Below, one piece after another: positions 25,881-57,549 of a stretch of 64,000 nucleotides of DNA. This DNA comes from Promethearchaeota archaeon (lineage in GTDB: Archaea; Asgardarchaeota; Heimdallarchaeia; Hodarchaeales; Hodarchaeaceae), in contig JBHLMN010000022.1 in the NCBI GenBank assembly GCA_048938105.1, positions 32,001 to 96,000 on the forward strand, given 5' to 3'. Position 1 is the first letter of the stretch, and every line of letters begins with the position of its first letter. Position numbers and translations under genes: made by a program. Under the pieces are notes generated by a model. The model had not been told where the DNA came from. It ran no database searches and was given only the letters and a program-made list of their open reading frames with translations.

Positions 25881-26261
25881 TTTCAATTGAAATTCATATA
25901 TGGTCTTGTTTTTGTAATACCTCAATCTTTCTTTTCTTTCCTGAATCCATTCAGTGCTCCGTTAAAAGTTGGTGAGCTTTACGATAAGTTTTTTTGTTTA
26001 AAGATTACGCTATATCCTTTTTTTTAATCCATTGACTCTTGTTTTTTTAACTTCCAACTCCAAATACAATTAATACTCCCCCGAATCCTATAAGGAAGTA
26101 AGCTCTGAACCTCAGGATTATTTTGATGGGTTTCGTGTACTCAGAAAATAAGTAGCTAGAACTTGATTAGTCTAATTCTAGGTGAGGTTTTTAAAGTAGA
26201 AAAATGTCCGTAATAAAATAAAAGCTTGAAAAAACCAATTTGATATCATTTCGAGTAAGGA

Positions 26262-27653
26262 GTGAGAGTCTTCTCATTGAACAGAATCTATTTGTCATTC
26301 GTGGTAATGGTGAGTGTTTTAGCTACAATAATGGTTCAATATGATGACAGCTCGCTTAGTTGTGCTCAATGTGTACATTGGAAACAATCACTTCCCCCCA
26401 AGAATAATGACCTGATTTCTGCCTCCTCTGAGATTGAAAATGAACTTTATAATGTAACTTTTAGGAATAATAGTTCTTATGCAATAGAAGAAGGAAATTT
26501 GCTTATCTGTAATCAGTGTCAAGCACTTAACAAGAGTAATATCACTTTCACTGGAAATGGCACCCTTCTTATCAAGAATTCGTATCTTTATTATATTAAA
26601 TTATGGGAAGACCTAGAAATCAAGGTCATAAATAGCACCATAGAATTCACGGAGATTGGCGGACATTCTAACGCCTTGTATCAAAATGTCCATTGTCAGC
26701 AAATCTTCTCGGAGGGAAATGCGACTATTATATTGATAGATTCTAAATTGTTAGCCAATGGGGATTCTCCGATCCCTGGATCGCCTTCTAGTGGGGTTTT
26801 CTTCCAAGCACAAGACTATAGTCGAATAATCTCAGCGTTTGATAAGAAAAACTGGAGTGGTGGACTTTGGGGAAAACCACGGGCAGGTATTATTTGTTGG
26901 ATAAATGGTTTAAGTTATAATGAGACTGATACATGTTATTATTTGAGGGGGAAAGGGGAACATGGGGAATTAGTTAAATTCGCATTCTACTTAGAAAGTA
27001 TGAGTTATAGCAAAGTGTATATTTTTCTTGACAATGTTTTGGATTCGATGATAAGCATCCAGAAATGGAGAGGATCTTATCTATTTAATACATCAAAGTA
27101 TGAAAACAGGAAATATACACTAAGGATCGTTATAAATAATTCTCACGCTGAAAATTCAATAAGGTTGGAAGTCAACATTGATGATCATCTCCTTACACGG
27201 CCGACAATTTTGACCCCTAATGGTGGAGAAATTTTATCAGGAGACGCTAAAATTCGATGGGAACCTATTATTTGTTCTGCAGGGCATTTTGTCAGTTATA
27301 CCATATCTTTTTCTAGGAATGCAGGATTATCCTGGTGGATAGAGGAGTCAGGTATATCTGATAACATGTATGTTTGGGATACCTCCATTAGAGTCGATGG
27401 TTCAAACTATTTGATCAAAGTGAATGCGAGCTGTACTGATGACGCATGGGTAGTAGACACTTCTGATGGAATATTCCAGATCCAAAATACTCCTCCTCCT
27501 ACGATTACGATTACAAATCCCGGAAGAAGGATCTCTTCTAATACAATTATCGATGGTATTCCTGTTATGCCTAGCAATGTTATTTCAGGATTATTAATTC
27601 TGGGGATAATAATAACTGTGATAATTCTACGAAAAATGATCGATCGAAGATAG
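26262..27653 (+). CDS. Secreted surface protein with PNGGE Ig-like module and PSNVISGL-TM anchor
   Basis: Signal peptide; TPNGGE...NYLIKVNASC...DTSDG module shared with 9980, 22100 and 55410 proteins. Confidence 0.82.
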   Translation: MRVFSLNRIYLSFVVMVSVLATIMVQYDDSSLSCAQCVHWKQSLPPKNNDLISASSEIENELYNVTFRNNSSYAIEEGNLLICNQCQALNKSNITFTGNGTLLIKNSYLYYIKLWEDLEIKVINSTIEFTEIGGHSNALYQNVHCQQIFSEGNATIILIDSKLLANGDSPIPGSPSSGVFFQAQDYSRIISAFDKKNWSGGLWGKPRAGIICWINGLSYNETDTCYYLRGKGEHGELVKFAFYLESMSYSKVYIFLDNVLDSMISIQKWRGSYLFNTSKYENRKYTLRIVINNSHAENSIRLEVNIDDHLLTRPTILTPNGGEILSGDAKIRWEPIICSAGHFVSYTISFSRNAGLSWWIEESGISDNMYVWDTSIRVDGSNYLIKVNASCTDDAWVVDTSDGIFQIQNTPPPTITITNPGRRISSNTIIDGIPVMPSNVISGLLILGIIITVIILRKMIDRR

Positions 27654-28148
27654 ATATTCCAGCTACCTGGATCGATATATTCGTCATATCAACCCTCAAA
27701 GTGAGTACATAATCAGTAGTAAATCTCCCTCCAGTAAATATGTCCAAACCATTTATTCAGTAGAATAATTCCAATGAATGTGGATATGAATACATCCGTC
27801 ATGAAACCCAAAAAGATAATTGAAACCTTTTGATTAATATTTATCAAACTTCCAACCACTCTAGAATTTCTAGATTTCCCCCCATAAAAACCTTGATACA
27901 AATCTAATATAATACTAGTCTGGGATCTCTCGACTGGTAAGCTCCTCCTGACTCTCTCAGGGAAAAATAATAATGAACTTTCATCTATGAACAAATAGTC
28001 ATCCTCTAAGTAATAAGAATATTTACGATTTCAAGAAATTAACTACCCAAATATTTTAATAAGAGGAGAGGTCATTGATGTCATAGAAAATATATATCGA
28101 TAGTTATAATATTGATATTAATTTGGAGGAGATTTTATCTTAACGAGT

Positions 28149-29294
28149 TTGAAATGGAGTCGAAAACGTAATTATCGTAAATACAACGTTTTTCTTACCC
28201 TACGGTTAACTTTGACTATTTCATTCTTTATAACAATAACAGTAATTCCTTTAACAAGCATATTGAGCTACACTTCATCCAGTCTTATAACAATAAAAGA
28301 GCGTAGGTTTGAGGGAAATGAAGGAACAAGGATTACTACAAACTTGAACGATACTTTCTGGGAAAAAGGCCCCCCATTGCCAATCAATGATACAGGATAT
28401 GCTCATGCCTATAAGGGGAAAATCTATTTTGTTGGAGGAAAAGCAGTTCAAAAATACGATCCCTGGAAAGAACAATGGACAGTGATAAAACAAGAAGGCT
28501 TGGGTTATCACCCATTTAGCGGTGATAGTGCCTTAATAGGTGATAGAATTTATATGGTTCATGGATGGACTGATCGGAACACAACATATTATGATATATC
28601 ATCAAACTCCTTGGAAAGTTTTAGTCATCCGCAAAAAATGCGGTTAGATGTAGCTGTTGCCGCTGTCGATGATATTCTATATGTTTCGGGAGGATGGATT
28701 AGTGGAGGATCTGCTGTTAGAACAGTTGAAGCTTATAATCCTAAAACTGATAAATGGAGTTCGGTTCAGTCAATGAGTACTACTAGAAAGCAACACGAAA
28801 TGGTAGCTGCTGGAGGATTTCTCTATGTGATTGGAGGGTACAGTGGATCAGGATATAGAACTCGGACAAAAACAGTAGAAAAATATGACCCATCAACTGA
28901 TGAGTGGGAATATTTAGAAGATGTCCCAGCTTATTATACACAACATGGATCAACAACTACGCATGATGAAAGCATCATCATATCGAGTATCAAGAGGTCT
29001 ACCCATGTTTATAATTCTTCAGAAGAAAAATGGGTTCTAGGGCCAAGATATCCAGAACATTCAGGTATTATTTACTGGGCAAATTCTCTAACTTTTTTTA
29101 ATGGTAAAGTATATTCTATAGGATTGCGTGATTCACCAGGAAATTATTATAATTCAGTTTGGATAACCAAAATCTCTGAACCGACTGAATCAGAACCTCA
29201 AAGTTCATCTTTTGGCTCTCTAACGTTCATTTTTTCTCTGATTATCTTAGTTTTATTTGTAAATAAGTGTTTACGATCTAACGAGAAAACCTGA
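28149..29294 (+). CDS. Kelch-repeat beta-propeller protein, secreted/C-terminally anchored
   Basis: IYFVGG, LYVSGG..VEAYNP..DKW, LYVIGG..VEKYDP..DEW; N- and C-terminal TM. Confidence 0.9.
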   Translation: MKWSRKRNYRKYNVFLTLRLTLTISFFITITVIPLTSILSYTSSSLITIKERRFEGNEGTRITTNLNDTFWEKGPPLPINDTGYAHAYKGKIYFVGGKAVQKYDPWKEQWTVIKQEGLGYHPFSGDSALIGDRIYMVHGWTDRNTTYYDISSNSLESFSHPQKMRLDVAVAAVDDILYVSGGWISGGSAVRTVEAYNPKTDKWSSVQSMSTTRKQHEMVAAGGFLYVIGGYSGSGYRTRTKTVEKYDPSTDEWEYLEDVPAYYTQHGSTTTHDESIIISSIKRSTHVYNSSEEKWVLGPRYPEHSGIIYWANSLTFFNGKVYSIGLRDSPGNYYNSVWITKISEPTESEPQSSSFGSLTFIFSLIILVLFVNKCLRSNEKT

Positions 29295-29357
29295 TGTTAC
29301 TCACTGCTGAAAACTTGAATCCTTGAAGAGTTTCTAAACAAAAAATTATATGGCAGA

Positions 29358-29476
29358 TACTCAATCAGATTTCTTTCGCTTATCTTTAACATAAATTGCC
29401 AGGACTGCCTTCAACACCACGTTCGTCAATTTCAAAGAGCTCAACAGCTTTGAACCTTTTATAACCATAATTACGC
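29358..29476 (-). pseudogene. Remnant of NYN/OST-HTH gene 3' end (40712-40847) with small deletions
   Basis: tcaatttcaaagagctcaa and ttttataaccataattacg shared; includes the stop codon. Confidence 0.85.
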
Positions 29477-29518
29477 CAGTTATAGGAAAGATGGCATAGG
29501 CTTACTCCTAGGAGGGGT
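29476..29518 (+). repeat. 43-bp copy of the junction at 25764-25806 (ATPase 5'-derived)
   Basis: ccagttataggaaagatggcataggcttactcctaggaggggt, 41/43 identical. Confidence 0.85.
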
Positions 29519-29646
29519 ACTATTAACAATATTATGTAAAATAATTGTACCATAAACAATAAAAGTTTTCAAACAAAAATATATTAGGGATGGTGATCCA
29601 TAACTCAATAGCCTTTATATTATATGTGTCTTAGGAGGAAAAGAGG

Positions 29647-32600: not shown

Positions 32601-33198
32601 ATTAGCATTAATATCACCTATTAGCACTTATCTGAGCGATCAAAAAAAAGAAAATTATCAACTGACGATAAGACTACTAAAAAGCTTATTAGAAGGATTT
32701 TTCTTGATGATGATACTTGTTATTATAGGAATTCTCCTATTAATTAGCCCAGCATTGATTTATCTTTTCATAACAACAATATTCAACCCAGAAGGTTTCT
32801 ATTACACAGATGACCTTTGGTTTTATACTGTATCTTTTTTAAACTTTGGAATAGAGTTAATTCTTTTTCAAAGAGTATGGGTTTTTCTGGTTCTTCGTGG
32901 TTTGAAATTGGAGCTTAATTTCAAAGAAACATTCGCGTTAACGCGGAATACAGCCTTTGAAGGCCAATTAGGATTCATTACATTACTTATTATTCACACA
33001 CTGATTCAGATTATTATAACCATGATTTTTCGTTATCCTATAGCTCGAAGTTCTTCCATTTCCTTTAGTCAACAATTATTCTTTCCGCCACTCCATCCCA
33101 TTTCATTTCTTGCACTAATGAGTTTTGAAATAGGATTTTTCGTAATATTAATAATTTATCAACATATCCAACTAAAAAAGCAGCTTATTGTCACATGA
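29647..33198 (+). CDS. Large FtsX/MacB-like ABC permease with extra C-terminal TM domain
   Basis: LAWRNVTRSRYRSFL, RQKELGILRATGA, REMGIMRSLGLS motifs. Confidence 0.88.
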   Translation: MRFLQLRMTFSLAWRNVTRSRYRSFLLILGILLTVALETGIAVSVDTLYDDFLLENRNNNYTDITVNPVTWQDSASLEVLAKEVRQISGVSKASPALFLSVNQFISQQVSQNVLVYGIDPKNHPDMAHLDLISGSRTLQSDTIIISEHLSTVSGFQVGDSVDLSSIRDDLNILRVTIGGIISDKSCIGNKIGFLFILVDFQTLLRVIPEGLRSHILIQEIDVSVKDLLRINGIAEKIEDKVGLNNYVFVEKDISEIKSAGIRAYQTAMNLVIIASFVVEFLFITNILAIAIKDRQKELGILRATGANSWQFIKFIGVEVLIYAIIGSTFGIFVGIGFSQILVDFMDNYYTSIEFQSISLHFSSIFATFLSGIIVALISGLYPIFLAQTLPVVQNIHSRMTTAKSHNIFTVTMWKYTIGSGVSLAITAFILQIFIGPSRFLDFSLLSAHFLTVVMIFSGTLLIEIGILAFLPRIAMRVLFWFDIITRTISIRNIAREFQKSLFTIMTAALALTFIIIVGTVSAAIIEEVPDYFQSQWGSIDAIVEARDDNLLPINSTQLLEKRGVIAKAAFIQETRTQIDSTNGYIYGVDPTQYSFFAEPILTSDYDLPSYLILNASTTNTINGLVSQILFQQLRSPLGSSVLVKIADNSTVNVTLAAVIKANIFLGSGEYLYISSGHFQDYFNSTMAKWFLCKQSGESASIEGAIKLALPEIKEITMINSIAELVEETLLFQSAIFQVLFIESFVLAAIAQFVCILMSTLRMEREMGIMRSLGLSKEKVFSIFMCESTALGITSLIVGFLDGFLGSILLIWYISQSIPITFYLPLERVAFWVGVSFLITIASTIVPSYRSSQKNVVATIYGRPMRKSYIEKIEEPIFFEEEELLPQRKRKEVLTVYDEPKEYQTSFQIGKSLLKANKQKIRNIFVVLLAVCLLNYILDSYLPHRGLIPFDLITSSFFSGGDFMFQYYSIRKRYLILLNPLLFFMGLALISPISTYLSDQKKENYQLTIRLLKSLLEGFFLMMILVIIGILLLISPALIYLFITTIFNPEGFYYTDDLWFYTVSFLNFGIELILFQRVWVFLVLRGLKLELNFKETFALTRNTAFEGQLGFITLLIIHTLIQIIITMIFRYPIARSSSISFSQQLFFPPLHPISFLALMSFEIGFFVILIIYQHIQLKKQLIVT

Positions 33199-33438
33199 AA
33201 TTAAGAAATGCTACAATTTCACGAAAATTGTTAAAGCAAAAGAAAAAGTCAAACAAACCCCCTAATTCTCCGTAATTGAGCTGTGCGCCAAAAATCACCG
33301 CGAAATTCGCATTGACTTCAATCACAATCCTCCAAACACCATAGTAGAGGAAGGAATCCTTCATATGAGTAGGCCAAATAATCAAGTAGAAAAGCTTTCA
33401 ACCTTAAAATTGTTAAAAATCATCATGCACATTGTCCA

Positions 33439-33462
33439 CTTTTGTACTCATGTTAATTCAGA
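33439..33462 (+). repeat. Array boundary site, copy 6 (degenerate)
   Basis: cttttgtactcatgttaattcaga vs cttatttactcatgaaaattcaga (37562); followed by a GTPase remnant as in copies 7 and 8. Confidence 0.65.
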
Positions 33463-33628
33463 TCTATAGATGAAAACTTGTTTTTGTAATACCTTAATCG
33501 CTAGATCATAAAAAATTGTATCGATAGTTTTTTTGTCGGTTAGGTTGGACTCATAATACGAAACTCCTAATTCTCTCGCTAAATTCTGGCCCTCTTCTGT
33601 TATTACAGTTCCTGATTCAATAATGAAC
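33463..33628 (-). pseudogene. Rab/Ras-like small GTPase C-terminal remnant
   Basis: VITEEGQNLARELGVSYYESNLTDKKTIDTIFYDLAIKVL resembles the alpha4-G5-alpha5 region of Rab/Ras GTPases; no P-loop present. Confidence 0.75.
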
Positions 33629-33706
33629 TTTTCAGGGGGACAATTTGGAGTAGAAATCATACCAATGGAATTCATTTATATTGTGGCATCACTTGGATGT
33701 CTGGCT

Positions 33707-33785
33707 CTATTAGCTTTCACCTATACTCTACGAGACAAATTTAAGACAAAAAGCTGAAAAAGAATTCAAAATGGGTGTATTCGGA
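33707..33785 (+). repeat. 79-bp repeat (partner 57317-57395); looks like the 3' end of a lost TM-anchored gene
   Basis: ctattagctttcac...atgggtgtattcgga shared; both copies lie beside GTPase remnants. Confidence 0.85.
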
Positions 33786-33843
33786 AAAAATTTTTTATAG
33801 TCTTCAGATTCTTTGATCGCTTCAATTATAGCTGAATTAATAT

Positions 33844-35349: not shown

Positions 35350-35427
35350 GTTCAGAATCCGTTAAAATAAAAAAAAATACATTCTAGTCAAAGATCAGTA
35401 GTAACTGCTTCATCAGTCAAGTTTTCG

Positions 35428-35554
35428 AGAGGATTTTTTCGAAGTGGAAAGAGGGGGTCGTTTTACTCATGGGAGGGGCTTCTCCAAGGAAGATTTTGAT
35501 ATGAGGACTCACTCCTCCTAAATTTTCCTCAGATGCTTATTGATTCATGAAAAT
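35428..35554 (+). repeat. ATPase 5' remnant plus boundary site, copy 7
   Basis: ttcgaagtggaaagagggg...gactcactcctccta...cctcagatgcttattgattcatgaaaat. Confidence 0.92.
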
Positions 35555-35825
35555 TCAGAATGAAATTCATATATCGCCTTTTTTTCGTAATACCTCAATA
35601 GCTAAATCATGAAAAATGGTTTCAATAGATTTTCTCTCAGTTAGGTTGGACTCATAATACGAAACTCCTAATTCATTCGCTAAATTCTGGCCCTCTTCTG
35701 TTGTTACAGTTTCCGATTCAGTGATAAACCCCAGGATCGCAATCGGAACTGAAGATTCAGGAATTTGATGAACTAAATTTCTTATTCAAATCTTTAACGG
35801 CTTTGAACGATGCCCTATCATCATA
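35555..35825 (-). pseudogene. Longest small-GTPase C-terminal remnant
   Basis: DDRASFKAVKD (frameshift) ...VPIAILGFITESETVTTEEGQNLANELGVSYYESNLTERKSIETIFHDLAIEVL. Confidence 0.78.
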
Positions 35826-35885
35826 GTATGGGGGGGAAAGCCTGATCTGAGGCTGTTTTCGATGGTTATGACTTGCGGTGTCAAG

Positions 35886-37145: not shown

Positions 37146-37342
37146 TTCCCCTTCCATAGTACAGCTAAGATCATAACGAAATTCTAGTAAGCTAGACATC
37201 TTCTATATATATATTTAGCTAGAGTTCGAGTTAATCATTTACATAGTTTCATAATCTGCAGAAACAATTCTGGGTAAATGAACATCAGAAGGGAGGAGAA
37301 CATAGAGTTAGGAACCGAAAAATATCTATTTGGGGTCATCAG

Positions 37343-37560
37343 TGGTAAGAATTTCTTGAATGGGATTAAAAAACATCTCTTGATAAGAAGCTCGTAATTG
37401 ACTCTGAAACGGACGGTGGGACAACTCCTAGAGGGAAATCTGCCCATTGATCGAAACGATACAACGGCGTTCGTCGCGTTTGGCTTTCAAGAGCTGACGT
37501 AATTGCTCATATTCATTCCGAGGGAAGCCCAAGAGGTTTGCAATGTCAAAGGGATTGAAT
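37343..37560 (-). pseudogene. ATPase 3'-end remnant fused directly to the boundary site
   Basis: Aligns to ~49287-49552 (tgacgtaattgctcatattcat exact); joined at gaat|gcttat, so ~1.95 kb of the gene is missing. Confidence 0.88.
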
Positions 37561-37580
37561 GCTTATTTACTCATGAAAAT
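37559..37580 (+). repeat. Array boundary site, copy 8
   Basis: atgcttatttactcatgaaaat, exact core. Confidence 0.92.
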
Positions 37581-37683
37581 TCAGAATAAAATTCATATGT
37601 CGCCTTTTTTTCATAAAACCTCAATAGCTAAATCCTGAAAAATGATTTCGATAGTTTTTCTGTCAGTCAATTTGGACTCAAAA
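37581..37683 (-). pseudogene. Small-GTPase 3' remnant
   Basis: Colinear with 35555-35657. Confidence 0.78.
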
Positions 37684-40714: not shown

Positions 40715-41461
40715 TCAATCAGATATTTTTCGTTTATCCTTGACATAAATTGATTTACCGGGACTACCTTTAACACTACGTTCATCAATTTCAAAGAGCT
40801 CAATAGCTTTAAACAATTCGTTGAGCTTTTTATAACCATAATTACGCGGATCGAATTCAGGACTTTGATTCATCAAATTTGTACCAACTACAGCCAAATT
40901 TGCCCAACCGCTTTCATCTGTAGAAGATTCTACAGCATTTCTTAATAAGGTGACAAGCTTTGTGTCTCCTTTAAGTTGTTTAGTAGTCTTTTTGGAAGGT
41001 GGTTGGCCAGACTCATCTTTACGTAAGATCTCAGTGAAAATAAATTTGTCACAAGCTCCAACAAAGGGTTTAGGGGTCTTTTTCTCACCAAATCCATATA
41101 CAATAAGGCCCGACTCACGAATTCTTGACGCTAATCGTGTGAAATCACTATCACTGGAGATAATACAAAAGCCATCAAGAGTCTCAGTATACAACAAATC
41201 CATGGCATCAATTATCATGGCACTATCCGTAGCATTTTTACCAACAGTGTATCCAAACTGCTGTATGGGTTGGATAGCATATTCCAACAAGACCTCCTTC
41301 CACCCCTTTAGGTCTGGAGTTGTCCAATCCCCATAAATCCTCTTAACTGTAGCAGTTCCATATTTAGTAATTTCTGCTAACAGATCATCAATGATACTTG
41401 GTTGGGCGTTTTCTGCATCAATAAGAACTGCTAATTTCCTTAAGTTTTGATCTTCACTCAT
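40715..41461 (-). CDS. NYN (LabA/DUF88, PIN-fold) protein with C-terminal OST-HTH/LOTUS domain
   Basis: LAVLIDAENA, KRIYGDW, GKNATDSAMIIDAMD, ISSDSDF, FDPRNYGYKKLNEL. Confidence 0.92.
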   Translation of the reverse strand: MSEDQNLRKLAVLIDAENAQPSIIDDLLAEITKYGTATVKRIYGDWTTPDLKGWKEVLLEYAIQPIQQFGYTVGKNATDSAMIIDAMDLLYTETLDGFCIISSDSDFTRLASRIRESGLIVYGFGEKKTPKPFVGACDKFIFTEILRKDESGQPPSKKTTKQLKGDTKLVTLLRNAVESSTDESGWANLAVVGTNLMNQSPEFDPRNYGYKKLNELFKAIELFEIDERSVKGSPGKSIYVKDKRKISD

Positions 41462-41499
41462 AAAAAAAACCTTCTCACTGTTCATTAAGCAAGGAATAA

Positions 41500-41631
41500 T
41501 CACTTTCTTTTCTTCGCTGCAGCTCTCATAGCTCGAGCTTTAAAGCCCTGATTTTTACCTGAACGATCAGCAGCAATTTGAATTCTACGAGCAGATGCTT
41601 TGGTCATGGAAGTTTTGCGTTTAGTACCCAT
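41500..41631 (-). CDS. 43-aa basic small protein, SMP/LEA-like
   Basis: MTKASARRIQIAADRSGKNQGFKARAMRAAAK; GTGAGG Shine-Dalgarno upstream of the ATG at 41631. Confidence 0.65.
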   Translation of the reverse strand: MGTKRKTSMTKASARRIQIAADRSGKNQGFKARAMRAAAKKRK

Positions 41632-42626: not shown

Positions 42627-42696
42627 TCATTCTTTGGTCAAAATTTCTCGAATGGGATCAAAATACAACTGTTGATAGGACTCACGTAATTGTTTC
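42627..42696 (-). pseudogene. ATPase extreme 3'-end remnant
   Basis: tctttggtcaaaatttctcgaatgggatcaaaatacaactgttgata aligns to ~49279-49348 including the stop position. Confidence 0.85.
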
Positions 42697-47620: not shown

Positions 47621-48067
47621 CAGTATCCAAGCCTTTCTTGCGAAACCACCCATGTTCCAAAGGACTTATGTAGATGTGGATCGATTTCGGATCAAAAATG
47701 GCATACTTCAACGAAAAGGTTTCTTTGACATGCTGGAAGACGTTAATACTGGAACGATCAACATTAAGAGGAATGTGTGCAAAGTGGAAAGAGGGGATCG
47801 TTTTTCTCATGGGAGAGGCCTCTCCAGAGAAGAAATCACTAAGGTTACTCACTCCTCCTAGGTATGGAAAAAGCGCTTATTTACTCATGAAAATGATTTC
47901 ATCGTGAGATAAACCTTTTTTAAGGCTCAAAGAGCTATTAACCTGTAGTTGGGATTTGGTTCAAAAGGGAAACCACCTTGAGGTATAGTAAAGTGGTTCT
48001 CATTTTAATGCTTTTCATTTGTCTAGTTGTCTGTGGATTATCCCAAGAGCTTCCCTTTACCCCTGAA
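47621..48067 (+). repeat. 447-bp direct repeat of 51246-51692: ATPase 5' remnant, boundary site copy 9 (ends 47894) and signal-peptide fragment
   Basis: Constant offset of 3625 bp; ORF 47517-47852 shares SPM.K.IPSFHF.HIPLNVDRSSIN with the ATPase N-terminus. Confidence 0.95.
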
Positions 48068-48124: not shown

Positions 48125-48238
48125 GGGTGGGGTGATTGTTCGTCCAGCATCCATGTTTATATGCCACGTAAGGTGAAACTTTTATAAGAGAAAATGACAA
48201 CAATAACAGGATAATTGCATTCATGAGGGAAAGATACA

Positions 48239-49042
48239 ATGAGAATAACCCATTTGATTAATAATCAAGAAGAAATTGATATTCTTCGATGGTTTAATAG
48301 AAAAAAACCAAAAAAGAGTAAAGAACTGCTATTACCTATACTTTTACTGTCAATACTCGTCTCGAATCCATATTATCATGTTCTTGCTGATCAGACTCAG
48401 GAAAAAAGAATTAATCCAGAACACTTTACAATAGCTGTTCAGGTTGGCGATTGGAGGGAATATAATGTGTCGAAATATTATAATCCCACTGGGATGGGTA
48501 GACTGTACACAGAGGAAGGGCAAAGACTCCTTGTCACAATAATTAATATTACACACAACTTCATAGAATATCGGGTTGAGATAATTCTAGTAAGTGGGGA
48601 GGTCAAAAATCAATCTTCTCAACCAAAAATAAATAGGGCATTTTACCCATGGGTTGGACACCATGTGACAACTACAAATAGAACACTGTTAGAACAAGCC
48701 TTAAAGAGAGACGAAATTCTGATATATGAATTTAAGGAGCATGAATTAAATGTGCAATGGATACGGAACTCTACGTTTTACCCAGGGATCTTTGAGGAAA
48801 ATCACACGTTTATTGAAGAGTGGAATGTCGATCTGAAAACAGGTTGGTTAAATCATTATAAGTACAAAGTAACAATCAATGGAACGATAACACGAGAAAT
48901 CTTTATCGAAACAATAAGAAGTGTGGAACCAGTTAATACAACAACTGGGGACTCTTTCGCTTTAATTGTGATTCCAATCATAACAATTTATATTAGGAGA
49001 CGAGTAAAGAGGAAGAAGAAGGATTCATCAGAATTCACTTGA
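48239..49042 (+). CDS. Hypothetical secreted protein with C-terminal TM anchor
   Basis: Hydrophobic signal segment; VQVGDWREYNV; W.VDLKTGWL; TM plus RRRVKRKKK tail. Confidence 0.78.
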   Translation: MRITHLINNQEEIDILRWFNRKKPKKSKELLLPILLLSILVSNPYYHVLADQTQEKRINPEHFTIAVQVGDWREYNVSKYYNPTGMGRLYTEEGQRLLVTIINITHNFIEYRVEIILVSGEVKNQSSQPKINRAFYPWVGHHVTTTNRTLLEQALKRDEILIYEFKEHELNVQWIRNSTFYPGIFEENHTFIEEWNVDLKTGWLNHYKYKVTINGTITREIFIETIRSVEPVNTTTGDSFALIVIPIITIYIRRRVKRKKKDSSEFT

Positions 49043-49278
49043 TAATAAAAAAATATAAATAATATGAAAAGGATGTATGAGGATAATTAAAGGAGGAAAA
49101 AGCAAGGCCGTTAATGTGTATTGTTTACTTACACTGGATAAAGACAGTGAACGAAAAGTGAAGGCGAAAAAGCATCATATTAAACCTTATTCCCAATGTT
49201 GATCATCCTACAAGAATATCAGCTAGGGGAGCACAAGCCAGAGGCACCATTAATAAACTAATTACTCCTCAAGGAGAA

Positions 49279-51495
49279 TTATTCTTTGGTCAGAATTTCC
49301 TGAATGGGATCAAAATACAATTGTTGATAAGAGTCACGCAATTGTTTCTGAAATGAAAGATTAGATAATTCATCTAAATCCATAGACAAGTCAGGATCTA
49401 AGAGAAACTCATTAGTCTTCAAGAGGGAAATCTGACCGTTGACCGAAATGATACAGCGGCGTTCATCTTGTTTAGCTTTTAATAATTGACGTAATTGCTC
49501 ATATTCATCCTTTGGAATACCTAAGAGATTCGAAACCTCGAAAGGGTTGAATTTCGTGAAGAAAAGAGTCAACAGGCCAGTGTTTGTTAACATAGGTTGG
49601 TCAATAATAGGTTCCGTGCCAATAAAAATCATAGAAATGTCATATGCACGTAAGGTCCAAGGGCCACGTCCAATCATAGATTCAGGAGATTTCGAACGGA
49701 AATTCTTCGCAGGAGCGAGCTTTTGGATCTCATCCAACACGAAGACATTTTTCGGCAACGATTCTTCTTTGAAAGGAGCTCGAAAGGTACGAACATAATA
49801 ATATAAATTCTGAAAGACCACATTTAGAAAAATCTCCCGCCCGCTTTGATCCTCCATAGCCTCAAAGGCAGAGAGGTCAATAATGGCATTCCGATCAAGG
49901 AGGTTGGCAACCTCAAAGGTGGTCTTTGATACCGTGAAACACCGCCCCGTATTACCAAAGAAGAGTTTTTCGACACGATTCAAGATGCCTGTCGCAGTAT
50001 TCTCAAGATAAGCCCCCTTCATTCCCAACTCATCGGGATTCTCCAGATAGAAAAGAAACCTCCGAAAATCCCCCTGATCTTTCACTGTTTGAATAACAGT
50101 AAGATGAAGCATCCGCCGCATCTGGGGAGATACAGCATCCTCATTATCAAAAATATGTTCTAGAATGGAGACCGCAAATTGGATATGGTCTTCAACAGGG
50201 ATAAGAGGTTGACCTGCATCATTCAGAGGAATTTGGAAGATATTAATCCCCCAAGGGAAGGAGGCAGACCCAGGCTTTAAGTAGAGAAAATCATCACAAA
50301 AAGTCCTAACAGGGGAAAGATACTCCCCTTTCGGATCAAAAATGAGAAATTTGACCCCTTTTTGGTGAAATTCGTTGATTAAACCATAAATGAAACGACT
50401 TTTGCCCTCACCTGTCATACCAAAAACAGCCATGTGCCGACAGAGGTCTTTCCCGTCAATTAATAAAGGAACATTAGAGGTTTTGCCGCTAATAATGGGA
50501 ATCCCAAGGTTGATGGCACGTTGAGGAGAAGTTTCACTTATACCCGTGGATAAGGTGTAATCAGATTTGTTGGGGACGAGAGTATACCCCTCGTGGGAGA
50601 ATTGCCGCTGAGGAGGAGCAATGAAACTCATTAGAGACGAACCATCCAAAGTAATGGGGGACACCAGCTTTCTGGAAACACACAACTTCCTGAGGGAAGG
50701 AAAACGTCTGAAAAAAGTGGGATAAGAGCGAGCTTTAAGTCCCTTAGAGACAAATAAGACAGATAAACGATTAAGCTTGGCTTTTAACAACTCAGGACTG
50801 GTTTCCACAACTAAAATCCGAGGAGAGAAGCGAAAACAACCAGCTTCCTCCATGATGTTCATTCGCTGAGGTTGGAAACGGCGTTCGACTTTACCCTGTT
50901 GAATATCAAAACGGACATGACTCAGATGCCGTTCCTGATCATCATCAGATTGGAACTTCTTGGGGACTTTGATGGATTTGAAGACAAATTGAAGAAAAGC
51001 AAATTGAGGATTGTCCGTCAAAATTTCAAGCAGATGATCAGTGAAACCATCAGCTGTGGTAAAAGGAGGTTCTGCAGTGCCCTCTAAACCAAGGATTCCT
51101 CCACAGAAAAAAGTAGGGCCATCTGTACTAACCTGAAAAGACTTAGTCAAAAGGTCAAGAAGCACATGAATCGGGGTGGGTTCAATCTTGTGAAAGTCAG
51201 GATGTAAGCCCATGGCAATAGCAAACTGCTGAATGGTGGCGATACCAGTATCTAAGCTTTTCTTGCGAAACCACCCGCGTTCAAGGGGACACATGTGGAT
51301 GTGGACAGATTTTGGATCAAAAATGGTATACTCCAACGAAAAGGTTTCTTTGGCATGCTGGAAGATGTTAATACTAGACCGATCAACATTAAGAGGAATG
51401 TGTTCGAAGTGGAAAGAGGGGATCGCTTTGCTCATGGGTGAGGCCTCTCTAAGGGAAAAATCGAGTTGATGACTCACTCCTCCTAGGTATTGCAT
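49279..51495 (-). CDS. HerA/FtsK/VirB4-superfamily P-loop ATPase (DUF87-like); only intact copy in the window
   Basis: RHMAVFGMTGEGKS (Walker A), FLIFDPKGEY, VFVLDEIQKL (Walker B); visibly GC-richer than its neighbours. Confidence 0.88.
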   Translation of the reverse strand: MQYLGGVSHQLDFSLREASPMSKAIPSFHFEHIPLNVDRSSINIFQHAKETFSLEYTIFDPKSVHIHMCPLERGWFRKKSLDTGIATIQQFAIAMGLHPDFHKIEPTPIHVLLDLLTKSFQVSTDGPTFFCGGILGLEGTAEPPFTTADGFTDHLLEILTDNPQFAFLQFVFKSIKVPKKFQSDDDQERHLSHVRFDIQQGKVERRFQPQRMNIMEEAGCFRFSPRILVVETSPELLKAKLNRLSVLFVSKGLKARSYPTFFRRFPSLRKLCVSRKLVSPITLDGSSLMSFIAPPQRQFSHEGYTLVPNKSDYTLSTGISETSPQRAINLGIPIISGKTSNVPLLIDGKDLCRHMAVFGMTGEGKSRFIYGLINEFHQKGVKFLIFDPKGEYLSPVRTFCDDFLYLKPGSASFPWGINIFQIPLNDAGQPLIPVEDHIQFAVSILEHIFDNEDAVSPQMRRMLHLTVIQTVKDQGDFRRFLFYLENPDELGMKGAYLENTATGILNRVEKLFFGNTGRCFTVSKTTFEVANLLDRNAIIDLSAFEAMEDQSGREIFLNVVFQNLYYYVRTFRAPFKEESLPKNVFVLDEIQKLAPAKNFRSKSPESMIGRGPWTLRAYDISMIFIGTEPIIDQPMLTNTGLLTLFFTKFNPFEVSNLLGIPKDEYEQLRQLLKAKQDERRCIISVNGQISLLKTNEFLLDPDLSMDLDELSNLSFQKQLRDSYQQLYFDPIQEILTKE

Positions 51496-51519
51496 GAGTG
51501 CTTATTTACTCATGAAAAT
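51471..51519 (+). other. Array boundary site, copy 10 (reference copy; putative recombination site)
   Basis: CATGAGT(51493-51499)-GCTTATTT-ACTCATG(51508-51514); overlaps the first ATG of the ATPase ORF. Confidence 0.85.
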
Positions 51520-51602
51520 GATTTCATCGTGAGATAAACCTTTTTTAAGGCCCCAAGAGCTAAGACCAATAGTCTGGGATTTGGATCAAAAGGGAAACCA
51601 CA

Positions 51603-54600
51603 TTGAAATGGAGTACCACAGTTCTCATACTAATGCTTTTCATTTGGCTATTGGTCTGTGGAAAAAGCCAAGAGCTTTCATTCACCCCTGAAAATCAACT
51701 CTCTAATGGTCAGGCTGCTGATCCTCGGTTTGGTAATTCCAAAATACATCAATACACTCCCCATGATCCCATTATTATTACAAGAAATAGTGATTTTGCC
51801 TCCCAAGGATATCCTGGTTCAGGAACTATTGATGATCCATATTGGATTAAGGGATTTAATATTACTTCTCCTGATGGTGATTTAATTGCCATTAGTGATA
51901 CTACTGCATATTTCTGTATTGCTAACAACTATCTCAATGGATTATCCACAGCGTGGGGAGGTATCGTCCTGAACAACGTTATTAACGGAATAATCGAAGA
52001 CAATCTCGTGTTAAACCATGAATATTTAGGAATAGTGACTTATTCCTCATCCAATATTGTTATAGTTAACAATATTGCTTTCAATAATGGTTTGAACGGA
52101 ATTCGACTTGAAATGGAATCAAATAATAACCTACTTGAAAACAATACTGTTCTGGATAACAAAGCAGATGGGATTTGGATGGGAATTTCATGTAACTATA
52201 ATAGGATTATCAATAATACGGTCTATGCTAACATTGGGATTGGAATCTATTTTGGTTTGGAAGATTTTTCATATACTGGGTGTAGTGATAGCTTCATTTT
52301 CCGTAATTTTATTTACAATAACAGCTATGGCATAAAATTCGAGTCTTCAGATAATAACATAATCATTGGTAATAAAATTTCCAATAATACTCATCATGCC
52401 ATTTATCTTGACGCTACGTCTGATAGTAACAGAATAGCAATTAATAATTTTTTTAACAATAATCTAGGGGAGCAGTCTCAAGCTTATGACGATGGAGCTG
52501 CCAATGTAATTTTTGCAAATCATTGGGACGACTGGATCACACCAGATGACGATGGAGATGGGATTGTCGACGCCCCCTACAATATCAGTGGTCTATCAAC
52601 AACACAAGATGGATTTGCACATGTATCTGCTATCATACCGCACAGCGACATTTCTATTGATGGAGATGCGATGTTTCATGCTACTGCGGCTGCCGAAAAT
52701 TGGCCTGGGAACGGAACCTTGTCAAATCCCTATATCATTGAGAGACTTATCATGATTGACATAAGGAATCGGACATTGATTGAAATTGCCAACACAAGCA
52801 TCCATTTTCAAATAAGAGACAGCTTACCTTGGGGAGGATCTATCGTTTTCTCTAAGGTTTCACATGGAATAATTCACAATAATACTATGGTTCGGAGTGG
52901 GATAGCCATTTATTCCTCCAGAAATTGTACCGTGTCAGATAATTTAGTAACTGGTGACTCAGGAGACGGAATACACCTCCTAAACTCCAATCACACATCC
53001 ATTCTTAGTAATCAAGTGTTCAATAATCAAGGTCAGGGAATTTCCATTGACACCTCTTGGGATAGCACCATCTCTGGAAATACTGTAAACAACAACAACG
53101 AAGACGGAATTCGCTTTAAGGATTCTACAGCCATTATTATTTCTAACAACACGGTTTCCCAAAACGGGGTTGGAATTTATCTTGGGAGTTCTAATAATAG
53201 CACTATTTCTAACAATATAGTCACCGACAACAAACACAATGGAATTTTTCTTGAGGATTCATCTAATAGCGCTATTTCCAACAATACAATCACTGGTTCT
53301 CCGTGGAGTGGAATTCGGCTATTAAATTCTAGTGAAAGTACCTTGGGAAATAATTCGATCACCGAATGTAGTGATGGAATTTCGGTTGATGAGTCGGAAA
53401 CACTCACCCTGACCAATAATATGGTCACTAGCAACAGTGCGGATGGAATTGACCTTTTTTATTCAGGGAATAGCATCCTATCGGGGAATATGGTCTCTAA
53501 TAATGGTGGTAATGGATTTAATATTTTTGATTCAGAGACCAGTGTTCTGACTGCCAATACAGCCTCTAATAACAATGACCTTGGAATTTTTCTTAGAGAT
53601 TCTACAGACATTACCCTTTCCAACAATACAATCAAGAGCAACAGCGGTGGAATTTTTCTTTGGTATTCTGGGAATAACACACTTGTGAGCAACACTATCA
53701 CAAACAATGGAAACATAGGAATAATCCTTGCTACTTCCAAAAACAATACGATTTTAGATAATATTTTGGTAAATAATGATCTTTTCATCGGGCATGCCGA
53801 AATTAATTGGGATATGCATGTGACATCTCCTACTCTAACTGATTATTTTCAAGCTGATGTAATGAACAATTCTATAAACGGGAAACCGCTCGTATATTGG
53901 CAACATGCTGCAGGTGGAACAATACCAGCTGGAGCTGCCCAGGTCATTCTGGTGAACTGTACGGCAGTAACAGTGGCGAATCAAGATCTTTCAAATGTCT
54001 TGTTTGGTTTACAAACGATTTCCAGCTCATGCGTGTCCATCTTAAACAATGTCATAGTTAATACTAGTATATCTGGAATCTATCTTCTAGATTCTATTAA
54101 TAGCACGATTGCTGATAATAAAATTACACACAACTATGGACTTGGAATTTTTCTTCAGGATTCTAATTCTAGCGCTATTTCCAACAATACGGTCACCAAC
54201 AACAGACACAATGGAATTTTTCTTGAGGATTCTAACAATAGCAATAGTTCAAAGAATGTTGTCACCGACAATGATGGTCATGGATTTTATCTTGGGAATT
54301 CTAAGAATTGTATGATTTCATCAAACATTATTTCTTACAATCGTGGAAAGGGAGTCGAAGTTAATGATTCTACCAACATCATCATTTCCAGCAATACCAT
54401 CTCTAGTAACGACAATGGGATTCATCTTGAGAATTCATGCAATAGCGTTATCTCTGACAATACAATAAACTACAATGAGGAAGACGGAATTCTATTTAGG
54501 GCCTCGGAGAATAGCACTATTTCCAACAATACGGTATCCAATAACATGAAAGGAATTATTCTTGGGGCCTCTGGGAATTGTGTTATTTATAACAATACAA

Positions 54601-55190
54601 TCACTGACCATGATTTTCAGGGAATCGAAATTCATCGTTCTACAGCTATTACTATTTCCAACAATATAGTCTCCAACAACGACAACAATGGAATTATCCT
54701 TGAGAATTCATCCAATAGCGTTATTTCTGACAATACAATAAACTACAATAGCGGAAACGGAATTGTATTTTGGTACGATGAAATCTTAATTTCTAAAAAT
54801 AACTTAATTTCTCATAATACAGTGTCTAACAATAGTGGATATGGTATTTTTATAGGTGGATCATCTAAGTTTTGCAATGTATCGTGGAACATTTTTAATG
54901 GGAATAATCGTGAGGGAACATCTCAAGCTAAAGACGATGGAAGAAATAATACCTTTGAACATAATTACTGGGACGATTGGACGGAACCCGACACGGACGG
55001 GGATGGGGTTGTTGATACACCTTATGATATTGATGGTGATGCAGAGAATCAAGATATGTACCCACGCGTTTCTCCAAATCCTGTTTCCACCCCATTTTTG
55101 AGCGAAAATATCCTCATGGGGTTAGTTTTTCTCGTACTCATCCTTCCTGTCCTGGGGATCTTAATTCGCAAGCAGAAGAGAAATTTTTGA
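51603..55190 (+). CDS. Large NosD/CASH beta-helix surface protein with TM anchor
   Basis: Signal peptide, two HxxIxI/GxGTxxNPY modules, many beta-helix repeats, TPFL-TM-RKQKR tail. Confidence 0.92.
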   Translation: MKWSTTVLILMLFIWLLVCGKSQELSFTPENQLSNGQAADPRFGNSKIHQYTPHDPIIITRNSDFASQGYPGSGTIDDPYWIKGFNITSPDGDLIAISDTTAYFCIANNYLNGLSTAWGGIVLNNVINGIIEDNLVLNHEYLGIVTYSSSNIVIVNNIAFNNGLNGIRLEMESNNNLLENNTVLDNKADGIWMGISCNYNRIINNTVYANIGIGIYFGLEDFSYTGCSDSFIFRNFIYNNSYGIKFESSDNNIIIGNKISNNTHHAIYLDATSDSNRIAINNFFNNNLGEQSQAYDDGAANVIFANHWDDWITPDDDGDGIVDAPYNISGLSTTQDGFAHVSAIIPHSDISIDGDAMFHATAAAENWPGNGTLSNPYIIERLIMIDIRNRTLIEIANTSIHFQIRDSLPWGGSIVFSKVSHGIIHNNTMVRSGIAIYSSRNCTVSDNLVTGDSGDGIHLLNSNHTSILSNQVFNNQGQGISIDTSWDSTISGNTVNNNNEDGIRFKDSTAIIISNNTVSQNGVGIYLGSSNNSTISNNIVTDNKHNGIFLEDSSNSAISNNTITGSPWSGIRLLNSSESTLGNNSITECSDGISVDESETLTLTNNMVTSNSADGIDLFYSGNSILSGNMVSNNGGNGFNIFDSETSVLTANTASNNNDLGIFLRDSTDITLSNNTIKSNSGGIFLWYSGNNTLVSNTITNNGNIGIILATSKNNTILDNILVNNDLFIGHAEINWDMHVTSPTLTDYFQADVMNNSINGKPLVYWQHAAGGTIPAGAAQVILVNCTAVTVANQDLSNVLFGLQTISSSCVSILNNVIVNTSISGIYLLDSINSTIADNKITHNYGLGIFLQDSNSSAISNNTVTNNRHNGIFLEDSNNSNSSKNVVTDNDGHGFYLGNSKNCMISSNIISYNRGKGVEVNDSTNIIISSNTISSNDNGIHLENSCNSVISDNTINYNEEDGILFRASENSTISNNTVSNNMKGIILGASGNCVIYNNTITDHDFQGIEIHRSTAITISNNIVSNNDNNGIILENSSNSVISDNTINYNSGNGIVFWYDEILISKNNLISHNTVSNNSGYGIFIGGSSKFCNVSWNIFNGNNREGTSQAKDDGRNNTFEHNYWDDWTEPDTDGDGVVDTPYDIDGDAENQDMYPRVSPNPVSTPFLSENILMGLVFLVLILPVLGILIRKQKRNF

Positions 55191-55326
55191 GGTAAAATAT
55201 ACGACATAAAAAGCATTTAAGCCTCAAAAAGCTACAACCCGTAATTTGGGATTAGGTCCAAAGGTGATTCTCTGGGGAAAAAAAAAAAGGTATTTCTCAA
55301 AAAAAGGGATGAGTATGTGATATGCA

Positions 55327-55375
55327 GACTCACTCCTCCTAGGTATTGAAAAAGCGCTTATTTACTCATGAAAAT
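55327..55375 (+). repeat. Array boundary site, copy 11
   Basis: gactcactcctcctaggtattgaaaaagcgcttatttactcatgaaaat. Confidence 0.93.
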
Positions 55376-55409
55376 TCGCAGGAAGTGTAAACAGTGAATA
55401 AGCTATATG

Positions 55410-57110
55410 TCATTCTTTTCTTTTAATAATTCCTTTTTGTAGTATTAGAGCGACAGTTATTAGTACAGTGATAATCAATCCGCCTATAACATTACCAGGA
55501 AAACCATTGGCATTTGTTCTAGTACTAGGAGTACTATTGACACTTGTACTAGTAGATTCCACCAAGGTTGTGGTAATAGTTGTATAACCAAAATTAATGA
55601 TTGTGAATGTATTATCAGATGTATCAGTATTCCAGACCCCATCAGCACAGCTCGCGTTTACTTTGATCAAATAGTTGGTGCCATTAGGTACTGTGGTGAT
55701 ATCCCATATATACATGGTTCCAGTAAAACCTGACTCCAAGGTAACCCACGATGTCCCCCCATCAGCGGAAAAAGAGACAGAATACGTGATTGAATGAGCC
55801 CAGGAATCAACACCATCTGTCCAAAAAATCGCGATTTCGTCTGAAAATGTCTCTTCACCATTAGGATGCGATACTGTTAGACCGAATATAAAGTGATTTT
55901 GAGGTAGATTCGAGGACGTGAGCGGATAGATATCTTGGTTATTCACTGAACCAGCAATAGGATAGGATTCATCTACAATACCATCCGTATCATTATCTGG
56001 GGTTGTCCAGTCACTCCAATAGTTAAACACGAAAATATTATTCGAACCATTATCAACTGCTTGAGATCCCGTATCAATGTTTCCAGAGAACTCATTGAAT
56101 AGAACTCTGTTATTAACAGAGCCATCTCGAAGTGAAACTCCATACCTATAGTTGTTGGTGAGAGTATTGTTGGATATCATACTGTTCTCAGAGTATTTAA
56201 AGCTAATTCCGTCCCCATTGTTGTCGTTAATACTATTGTCAGAGAGAATACAATTCTCAGAAGTACGAAGGGAAACTCCAGATTGATTGTTATTGTTGAT
56301 AGTATTGCCAGATAAAGTGTTATTAAATGAGGCAGTAAGACGAATTCCGTATTTAGTATTATTGGTAACGACATTGTCAGAGATGATACTATCCTCAGAG
56401 GAGCTGAGCCAAATTCCATTTCCACTGTTGTCGGTGACAACATTGTTGGTTAAAGTAGAATTCCCAGAAGTGATGAGACGAATTCCAAATCTACTGCTGT
56501 TGACAACAATATTATTGAACAGAGTAATACTTCTAGAGTAAAGAATCTCAATTCCTCCCAAACAATTGTTGGTAATTATATTATTAGATAATTGTCCATT
56601 AGTCACATTTTCTAGATAAATTCCAAATTCTCCTTGGTTTATTATACAGTTACTGATTCGAAAATATAAATTAGTATCCAGAATAGTTATCATGTTATAA
56701 TCATAGGAGCCAGAAATATTAAAATCATCAATGAGAATCGGAGACGAGGGGGTTCCATTACCAGGCCAATTATTCTTACTTGCTTGGGCAATGAAAAGAG
56801 AATCCCCCTCTATATAGATATAAGGATATTGTTTGGTTTCATTTATCACGTCTGCTTCGAATTTATCACGCAATTCCTGATTGAAACTCAAGATCTCTTG
56901 AGAAGAATCACTAAGGATCCAAGGACATGCTTCTATATCATCCTGGGTTTGACCAGGAAATTGAGATGCTAGATCATTTGAATAAAGGCATTTGGATTGA
57001 ACCATTATAGGACTGACCAAAAGGCTAAAAATACTCATGAATAGTACAAAATACAAAATGAATAGTTTTAACAAGGAGTATATAATTTGAATTTTATGAA
57101 ACTTCATCAT
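55410..57110 (-). CDS. NosD beta-helix surface protein with Ig-like module and PGNVIGGL-TM anchor (paralog of 22100-24055)
   Basis: Long near-identical blocks with the 22100 protein, fewer beta-helix turns. Confidence 0.9.
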   Translation of the reverse strand: MMKFHKIQIIYSLLKLFILYFVLFMSIFSLLVSPIMVQSKCLYSNDLASQFPGQTQDDIEACPWILSDSSQEILSFNQELRDKFEADVINETKQYPYIYIEGDSLFIAQASKNNWPGNGTPSSPILIDDFNISGSYDYNMITILDTNLYFRISNCIINQGEFGIYLENVTNGQLSNNIITNNCLGGIEILYSRSITLFNNIVVNSSRFGIRLITSGNSTLTNNVVTDNSGNGIWLSSSEDSIISDNVVTNNTKYGIRLTASFNNTLSGNTINNNNQSGVSLRTSENCILSDNSINDNNGDGISFKYSENSMISNNTLTNNYRYGVSLRDGSVNNRVLFNEFSGNIDTGSQAVDNGSNNIFVFNYWSDWTTPDNDTDGIVDESYPIAGSVNNQDIYPLTSSNLPQNHFIFGLTVSHPNGEETFSDEIAIFWTDGVDSWAHSITYSVSFSADGGTSWVTLESGFTGTMYIWDITTVPNGTNYLIKVNASCADGVWNTDTSDNTFTIINFGYTTITTTLVESTSTSVNSTPSTRTNANGFPGNVIGGLIITVLITVALILQKGIIKRKE

Positions 57111-57316
57111 TCCCCTTCAACTTGTTACTCCGACTTTCTTGATAAATAGGAAGATAGGAAAAACTTCCCATTATTATTTTAATTCTGATCAAACACATTA
57201 CTTTGAGTTTTATTATAACAACCCTAATGAATACTGTCTAAGGATAATCATTAAATGATAATTAAAAAGAGCTCCTTGGTTCTAGTCATTTTTTTTTTCT
57301 TTATGACTCTTTAGTC

Positions 57317-57395
57317 CTATTAGCTTTCACTTATACTTTACGAGACCAATTTAGGACAAAAACCTGAACAAGAATACAAGATGGGTGTATTCGGA
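57317..57395 (+). repeat. 79-bp repeat (partner 33707-33785)
   Basis: Gap-free alignment with 33707-33785. Confidence 0.85.
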
Positions 57396-57397
57396 TT

Positions 57398-57549
57398 GAA
57401 ATTTACAGGTCGCCTGTGTTTCGTAAAACCTCAATCGATAAATCATGCAAAATTGTTTCGATAGTTTTTCTGTCAGTTGGTGTAGACTCAAAATACAGAA
57501 CTCTCAACTCATCCGCTAATTCAGGCCCTCGTCAGTTGTTACAGTTTCC
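57398..57549 (-). pseudogene. Small-GTPase 3' remnant
   Basis: acctcaatcgataaatcatg...gatagtttttctgtcagt...gttgttacagtttcc colinear with ~35562-35714. Confidence 0.75.

Follow-up and report, generated by a model that had tools for sequence, protein, structure and literature searches.

A junction between two genes, one encoding a degenerate Rab-like small GTPase and the other a HerA-type ATPase, was found to be copied at least seven times in the genome of a Promethearchaeota archaeon (GCA_048938105.1, here G000). The truncated GTPase 3′ ends that accompany these copies are probably, though far from certainly, the scars of repeated homology-anchored addition of DNA at this one junction, i.e. 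the marks of an additive island. Read in this way, the stubs would form a dated, ordered record of how a surface-protein island of ~66 kb grew in an archaeon closely related to eukaryotes. Its DNA, which apparently came from diverged relatives, would have been added repeatedly at a single junction between genes, a process that bears on the gain of accessory genes in Asgard archaea.

The window analyzed is a stretch of 64,000 nucleotides (nt) corresponding to positions 32001–96000 of contig C37; positions given below without a contig are those of the window. The genome is a metagenome assembly of 5.85 Mb in 65 contigs. G+C content in the region is 32–42%, and genes for surface proteins are abundant, namely NosD/beta-helix (‘CASH’), leucine-rich repeat (LRR), Kelch, and tetratricopeptide repeat (TPR) proteins; FtsX permeases are also encoded. 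Fragments were recovered by MAFFT alignment together with a repeat finder, by self-blastn of the contig, and by tblastn of the intact protein, and 20 genomes of the same genus were used for comparison between species. G012 denotes the assembly GCA_029856365.1 together with sister metagenome contigs and is only 83% complete. The repeated element at the junction is called the site and its 20-nt core simply the core; r25k, r33k, r35k, r37k, and r57k are the GTPase 3′ stubs. Exact-protein look-ups with the intact GTPase and ATPase led to an independent assembly of one run, in which 3.6–3.7 kb beside two cores were 100% identical. Short contigs of the same organism obtained in this way stop within ~50 nt of core repeats; they confirm the sequence and not the arrangement. 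As the junction copies are 12–30% diverged, they are not assembly duplicates.

The GTPase stubs and the intact gene

A first-pass annotation of the window had described five minus-strand, 5′-truncated remnants of a Rab-like gene. These proved to be real, being homologous to each other (blastn, 78–88% identity, E-values 1e-10 to 1e-45) and to one intact gene of 173 amino acids (aa; blastn, 1e-26 to 1e-59). That annotation had correctly seen no intact copy in the window, and a whole-genome search located one just outside it, as an open gene on the minus strand 1.8 kb past the right end (C37:97828–98346, equivalent to window positions 65828–66346). As the annotation had suggested looking for, the intact gene ends beside a site at the end of the array, its TGA stop codon falling inside the core of a site copy. 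With the intact protein as query, tblastn detected the copies at 35.5k (E 5e-19), 57.4k (1.6e-14), 33.5k (2.9e-14), and 37.6k (3e-5). The 47-nt piece at 25881–25927 was recovered solely within a 138-nt junction alignment to the 35.5k copy (81%, E 1.7e-28). No relics of the N-terminal part of the GTPase were found on contig C37 by tblastn of the intact protein.

Assignment of the fragments to the Ras/Rab family was borne out by the intact copy, which matched the Pfam Ras profile (PF00071; curated cut-off 21.6 bits) with 87.8 bits (E 7.8e-25) over profile positions 1–160 of 162 and whose best relatives of solved structure (PDB) were Rab23, Rab11, and Sec4 (E ~1e-19). Among the relics, 35570–35785 scored above the cut-off (24 bits, E 3.3e-5) and 33451–33675 under it (17.9 bits).

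The positions first reported for the stubs were broadly right, except that r35k and r57k turned out to be longer (Table 1). Likewise, the statement that four of them abut the site applies to r25k, r35k, and r37k, which lie beside canonical cores, and to r33k, which lies beside a degenerate one; for r57k the core is lost. The longest relic, r35k, retains an open frame of 72 aa (35570–35785, IRNLVHQIPESSVPIAILGFITESETVTTEEGQNLANELGVSYYESNLTERKSIETIFHDLAIEVLRKKGDI), upstream of which it is frameshifted and internally deleted; past the frameshift it reaches ~35822 (DRASFKAVKD) and possibly 35885, where it abuts the stop codon of a NosD-like gene. The stub r33k is 86% identical to r35k and 79% to the intact gene (blastn), and corresponds to aa 120–167 (tblastn, E 2.9e-14). 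Two further vestiges, preceding the cores at 59314 and 13468, consist of the 13–19-nt post-stop tail only. We also noted a 79-nt segment, 90% identical between 33707–33785 (upstream of r33k) and 57317–57395 (directly after r57k, at the expected place of the core), which may belong to the promoter of the NosD gene at 55410–57110.

The site and the ATPase gene

The core TTTTCATGAGTAAATAAGCA (minus strand) occurs in 12 copies with at most two mismatches, all on one strand and all on C37, from window position ~1 to 65.8k. It is followed by a variable hexamer, the box CAATACCTAGGAGGAGTGAGT, and, ~45 nt on, the ATG of the ATPase gene; a TATA-like TAAATAA is found ~23 nt before CTAGGAGGAG in the site. 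Orthologues of the ATPase in relatives show 72–87% identity. The core itself is present in six of the 20 genomes. In G011, G016, G019, and G020 it occurs once each, directly upstream of the orthologous ATPase gene; no GTPase gene precedes it in these four, and the preceding DNA is unrelated. Among intact orthologous promoters of different species, conservation amounts to 0.93 in the core, 0.43 in the hexamer, 0.73 in the box, and 0.45 in the leader. The G000 copies, stub-only ones included, give 0.87, 0.43, 0.81–0.85, and 0.68, respectively, and the two profiles mirror each other.

From its position upstream of the ATPase gene and from this conservation profile, we read the site as the putative native promoter and leader of that gene. 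The earlier suggestion that an element targets the end of a GTPase gene is unsupported because the core belongs to the ATPase, sitting before it with no GTPase gene in the four species named. The CATGAGT/ACTCATG dyad formerly attributed to the site depends on the variable hexamer, and ACTCATG occurs in only three of 16 copies. Conserved inverted arms, as in the site of a tyrosine recombinase, were not seen: the left half is conserved at 0.87 and the right-arm hexamer is the least conserved part (identity 0.43).

A metagenome scan with a 19-nt core returned nine hits, all of them chance matches and none with ATPase or GTPase. A crude scan for dif-like sites (CGTTGG-spacer) yielded no family, and no such site on C37 or C8. 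PADLOC, applied to the ATPase and neighboring genes, gave weak generic HerA hits only and no call of a defense system. The pairing of core, GTPase, and ATPase is not general, because neither the core nor a GTPase gene lies upstream of a second HerA paralogue, located on C18 (70% identity). The ATPase gene has different neighbors in each of the species examined and is thus embedded in variable DNA throughout. Apart from this, we observed that the ATPase (49279–51495) has an N-terminal region of 330 aa with no Pfam match. HerA/DUF87 loci are found at window positions 49279–51495, C18:127214–129358, and C38:6792–7661, and two paralogue lineages exist in nearly all 20 genomes of the genus.

The ancestral junction and the layout of the array

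The order GTPase–site–ATPase had been proposed as ancestral, and the comparison agrees with this. G012 retains it, with an intact GTPase gene, the core, and an internally deleted ATPase gene lying contiguously, and the genes upstream of this junction are syntenic with window-equivalent positions 66.4–72.1 kb. In the window, three relic junctions (25.9k, 35.5k, and 59.3k) carry both flanks; each aligns in a single piece over the GTPase end, the core, and the ATPase start, meaning that the junction was duplicated as a whole. Together, the G012 arrangement and these both-flank copies indicate that the junction is ancestral for the G000/G012 lineage. The other option raised at first, that the element carries a GTPase, is possible. 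We also noted that a NosD-gene end (…tgtttacacttc[c/t]tgcgaa) is joined straight to the core in G000 (55355–55394 / 57398–57420); the same end in G012 (contig C110, L021) is followed by 12 nt of GTPase tail and then the core, and at all these junctions CGAA stands before the core.

At least six consecutive units extend on the minus strand from 59.3k to 13.4k, with the general order core and ATPase 5′ stub, cargo, GTPase 3′ stub and core (Table 1). The array begins, at its upstream end, with the intact GTPase gene; all relics follow further downstream, 5′-truncated and on the strand of the intact gene. One intact ATPase gene is located inside the array. In sister genomes, the cargo genes occupy unrelated locations. 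Direct site copies stand on either side of each of two CASH/NosD genes (51518/55374 and 64002/65833). These bracketed genes (51472–55377, and 63979–64000 on to ~65836) have a leader in common (51497–51877 vs. 63981–64361, 80%) as well as a 3′ region (54639–55377 vs. 65149–65836, 73%), and differ in their interiors. Cargo further includes a PIN-domain gene and an NYN plus OST-HTH/LOTUS gene (20970–21458 and 40715–41503); in the G012 lineage, the NYN gene is located ~2.7 kb downstream of the GTPase junction.

Table 1. Stubs, sites, ATPase sequences, and units of the array, in window positions.
Feature	Position	Strand	Remarks
r25k, GTPase 3′ stub	25881..25927	minus	Last ~10 codons (IEVLQKQDHI and stop) and post-stop tail; abuts core 25861–25880; aligns with 35463–35599 (81%, 138 nt)
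r33k, GTPase 3′ stub	33463..33675	minus	Homology 33477–33628; then degenerate core 33437–33456 (6/20 mismatches)
r35k, GTPase 3′ stub	35567..35885	minus	Longest relic; tail 35554–35566; core 35534–35553
r37k, GTPase 3′ stub	37581..37683	minus	In-frame TGA; abuts core 37560–37579; 88% to r35k; tblastn aa 143–166
r57k, GTPase 3′ stub	57398..57612	minus	1-nt deletion; core lost, homology ending exactly where core would begin
Post-stop tail vestige of relic-type GTPase	59315..59333	minus	Before core 59295–59314; 59186–59333 aligns with 35425–35572 at 78.5%
Possible tail vestige (weak)	13469..13487	minus	Before solo core 13449–13468
Reference site copy	51472..51518	minus	Core TTTTCATGAGTAAATAAGCA at 51499–51518, variable hexamer, 21-nt box CAATACCTAGGAGGAGTGAGT; upstream region/leader of intact ATPase
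Other cores	4507–4526, 13449–13468, 25861–25880, 35534–35553, 37560–37579, 47874–47893, 55355–55374, 59295–59314, 63983–64002	minus	Core matches
Site copy with 8-nt deletion	~1–40		
Intact HerA/DUF87-type ATPase	49279..51435	minus	718 aa from conserved ATG; open reading frame open to 51495; Pfam DUF87 E 2.4e-17
ATPase 5′ stub	35425..35508	minus	Opposite side of the 35.5k core
Similar ATPase 5′ stubs	25773–25835, 47621–47847, 59186–59269, 4369–4479, window start		
ATPase 3′ stub	37338..37560	minus	Joined directly to core 37560–37579; tblastn aa 644–738, E 6.7e-24
Second ATPase 3′ stub	42630–42695		tblastn aa 717–738
Unit	from 59314	minus	Core and ATPase 5′ stub; LRR gene; ends with r57k (core lost)
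Unit	from 47893	minus	Core and ATPase 5′ stub; cargo 37.8–47.5k; ends with r37k and core 37579
Unit	from 37579	minus	Core and ATPase 3′ stub; NosD gene; ends with r35k and core 35553
Unit	from 35553	minus	Core and ATPase 5′ stub; 501-aa gene; ends with r33k and degenerate core
Unit	from degenerate core (33437–33456)	minus	No ATPase stub; FtsX, Kelch, and 463-aa genes; ends with r25k and core 25880
Unit	from 25880	minus	Core and ATPase 5′ stub; cargo; ends with tail vestige and core 13468

Divergence of the stubs and a model of their origin

Over the same 49 codons, the stubs differ from the resident GTPase gene by a synonymous divergence (dS) of 0.36–0.59, compared with 0.13 between the G000 and G012 orthologues. 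The ratio of nonsynonymous to synonymous divergence (dN/dS) of the stubs is 0.35–0.48 and thus below 1. For the intact gene, the G012 orthologue shows 92% DNA and 90% aa identity, with a dN/dS of 0.29 over the full length. All stubs with a surviving end have a longer C-terminus (…EVLRKKGDI and stop) and a 13-nt tail; the resident GTPase of both G000 and G012 is shorter at this end, which extends into the core, and lacks the C-terminus and tail of the stub type. These values and the distinct C-terminus argue that the stubs are not recent copies of the resident gene; to judge from the sequences, they stem from a diverged allele class that was under constraint before truncation. Such divergence of once-constrained alleles points to import from related lineages.

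The sequences directly show the homology, extents, and orientation of the copies, how the units are laid out, that the junction is ancestral, what the site is, and how the copies diverge; the recombination mechanism, the import of alleles, and a promoter function of the core are what we infer. The ancestor would have had, on the minus strand, the degenerate Rab-like gene, then the promoter/leader of the ATPase gene, i.e. the site, and then the HerA-type ATPase gene. Blocks of foreign or relocated genes, mostly for NosD/CASH beta-helix, LRR, and Kelch surface proteins and for FtsX permeases, would have been added repeatedly at this junction, every addition duplicating a segment composed of the GTPase 3′ end, the core, and the ATPase 5′ end. 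Single-crossover (Campbell-type) integration of circular DNA bearing a copy of the junction could produce such a duplication, and unequal crossing-over between junction copies could have the same outcome. Insert ends would then be flanked by a 3′-truncated downstream gene and a 5′-truncated upstream gene, giving rise to co-oriented units with the intact GTPase gene at the upstream end and the intact ATPase gene within the array. The GTPase gene would be a bystander, its 3′ end merely lying within the recombining segment.

Weighing of alternative explanations

Several observations weigh against repeated addition by homology. The dN/dS values come from only 48–49 codons, and the core is taken to be a promoter from its position and conservation only. 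Neither the 20 genomes of the genus nor a collection of 5.8 billion proteins, searched for longer proteins, yielded a donor allele of the relic type; the best matches to the 72-aa frame of the relic are the resident type (70–72%) and a 168-aa protein (69%). In many independent junctions, homology breaks within a few bases of the two edges of the core (at 4526, 47893, 51518, 55374, and 64002 on the upstream side, and at 13468, 37579, 64002, and in G012:C204 on the downstream side), a regularity that exceeds random homologous exchange and fits site-specific cutting. Moreover, the ATPase 3′ stubs (37338–37560 and 42630–42695) show that some units once had whole ATPase genes, which also fits duplication of whole units or elements with both genes. 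Site-specific cassettes, an explanation that we regard as rather doubtful, would have an attachment site of ~20–49 nt and a recombinase encoded elsewhere, with circular units integrating serially at the core. Such units would have carried GTPase, core, and ATPase (or cargo and stubs), and the GTPase stubs would be leftovers of the elements’ own GTPase genes. The presence of 12 co-oriented copies within one ~66-kb stretch, the switching of flank types at, or a few bases from, the edges of the core in many junctions, the CASH genes between two direct site copies, and the solo cores (13468, G012:C204) are all in line with cassettes. However, genes for a tyrosine recombinase, a serine recombinase, or TnpB were not found on C37, all hits to PF00589, PF00239, and PF07282 being on other contigs, although a recombinase may act in trans. 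The right inverted arm is the least conserved (43% identity; ACTCATG in 3/16 copies), the core is single-copy in four species with a promoter-like conservation pattern, and clean site-specific exchange alone leaves variable stubs (16–320 nt) on both sides unexplained. It is unlikely, too, that the promoter core of the ATPase gene also serves a Hodarchaeales cassette system as attachment site, with the recombinase acting in trans and surface-protein modules being stacked; if such a system existed, the stubs of GTPase and ATPase would be arms hitchhiking on its mobile units.

Whole ATPase genes formerly present in some units are also what a purely internal history would predict, in which the segment from ATPase to GTPase was tandemly duplicated several times in situ and redundant copies then degenerated as parts were deleted and cargo was replaced, all without import of alleles. 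The G000 and G012 copies do cluster together relative to other species in the leader region, and paralogous NosD genes recur in several units. Nevertheless, we hold this history to be quite unlikely: the copies differ by 12–30%, several times the divergence of the G000–G012 orthologues, and retain both the constraint profile of a functional promoter and a dN/dS below 1. The cargo of neighboring units is unrelated and located elsewhere in sister genomes, and orthologous stubs at ~90% identity were not seen in G012 with its 83% complete assembly. Finally, co-oriented, promoterless, 5′-truncated copies downstream of an expressed copy resemble a pilS-type layout, in which the stubs would be silent cassettes and gene conversion would use them to diversify the C-terminal end of the resident GTPase. 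This appears highly improbable, since several stubs have stops, frameshifts, or only 10–30 codons, the residents of G000 and G012 share one type of C-terminus absent from all stubs, and C-terminal variation is of no evident use to a cytoplasmic protein of the Ras fold.

A degenerate Rab-like subfamily

As a side result, the analysis of the stubs brought to light a conserved subfamily of candidate pseudo-GTPases. The protein encoded by the intact gene aligns over the full length of the Ras fold (E 7.8e-25), as do the Rab-family GTPases of eukaryotes and Asgard archaea, but differs from these at G1, at G4, and at the C-terminus. In place of the G1 P-loop (GxxxxGK[ST]), the intact copy and its G012 orthologue have GTPNELKT, in which the second Gly is absent. 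At the G4 position (NKxD), the sequence GFITE reported earlier for the relic was seen in r35k and in the intact gene as well, and the C8 paralogues have GFIT[N/E] or GFISD. The G3 position (DxxGQ) reads DTSGKE, with Asp and Gly retained and Gln replaced by Lys, and the protein ends in …EVLRVKSEFS, with no Cys for a C-terminal prenylation motif. The protein is probably not a guanine-specific switch.

Degenerate G1 (G..xELKT) and G4 (GFIT[E/N/D]SE) motifs characterize a subfamily of at least eight paralogues in G000, six of them on C8; members comprise C37:97828–98346, C8:9175–9675, 48695–49192, 52212-, 40851–41360, 41440-, and 42151-, and C42:86044-. The closest canonical paralogue (C52:423315–423836) has GSGSVGKT at G1 and NKKDL at G4. 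A 584-aa protein in ENA (P0003), which combines LRR and Ras regions, carries a related G4 (VGIITESE) and a degenerate G1. With G1 and G4 ruined, this subfamily is a candidate archaeal ‘pseudo-GTPase’ family.

The stubs had initially been considered a possible route for expansion of GTPase copy number. Every extra copy is a dead 3′ stub, and the stubs do not explain small-GTPase expansion because only dead ends were produced here. None of the intact paralogues examined (six on C8) is followed by the core, which is confined to contig C37. We also noted a different intergenic element of ~90 nt, with 16 co-oriented copies on C8 (about 6.6–54 kb) and three more on C18. It follows the stop codon at four Rab-like places on C8, three of which are intact paralogues, and the one copy that was read through continues into the beginning of the following paralogue. 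This C8 repeat looks like a separate tandem or module array.

Comparison with known systems

Duplicated 3′ gene ends are known from the junctions of prophages and genomic islands, such as e14 and phage 21 in the icd gene of E. coli, and from islands in tRNA genes, where att sequences are repeated and islands may be arranged as tandem, ‘additive’ arrays. As in these systems, the array has an intact target at one end, co-oriented, 5′-truncated, and diverged 3′ copies at distal junctions, and blocks stacked serially. Unlike in icd and tRNA islands, the contig has no integrase gene, the block of shared identity is located at the stop codon or beyond it, as part of the promoter of the next gene, no fixed crossover point exists (stub lengths range from 16 to ~320 nt), and matching 5′ stubs of the downstream gene are present.

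In the orphan C-terminal modules of rhs and cdiA, the variable tip is the selected payload, a toxin with its immunity gene. There, too, diverged 5′-truncated 3′ ends accumulate downstream of one intact gene in the same orientation, displaced by incoming DNA. The GTPase stub differs in being a bystander, the payload being the unrelated cargo between stubs. Aloposons, which target tRNA genes and contain giant genes (PMC8813620), were considered as relatives and are unrelated. Integron cassettes and pdif/Xer modules resemble the array in that co-oriented short sites divide accessory genes and flanks switch at the site. In contrast to these modules, the site has no conserved dyad and no integrase nearby; in sister species it occurs once, as the promoter element of a conserved gene, and here it is accompanied by gene stubs on both sides.

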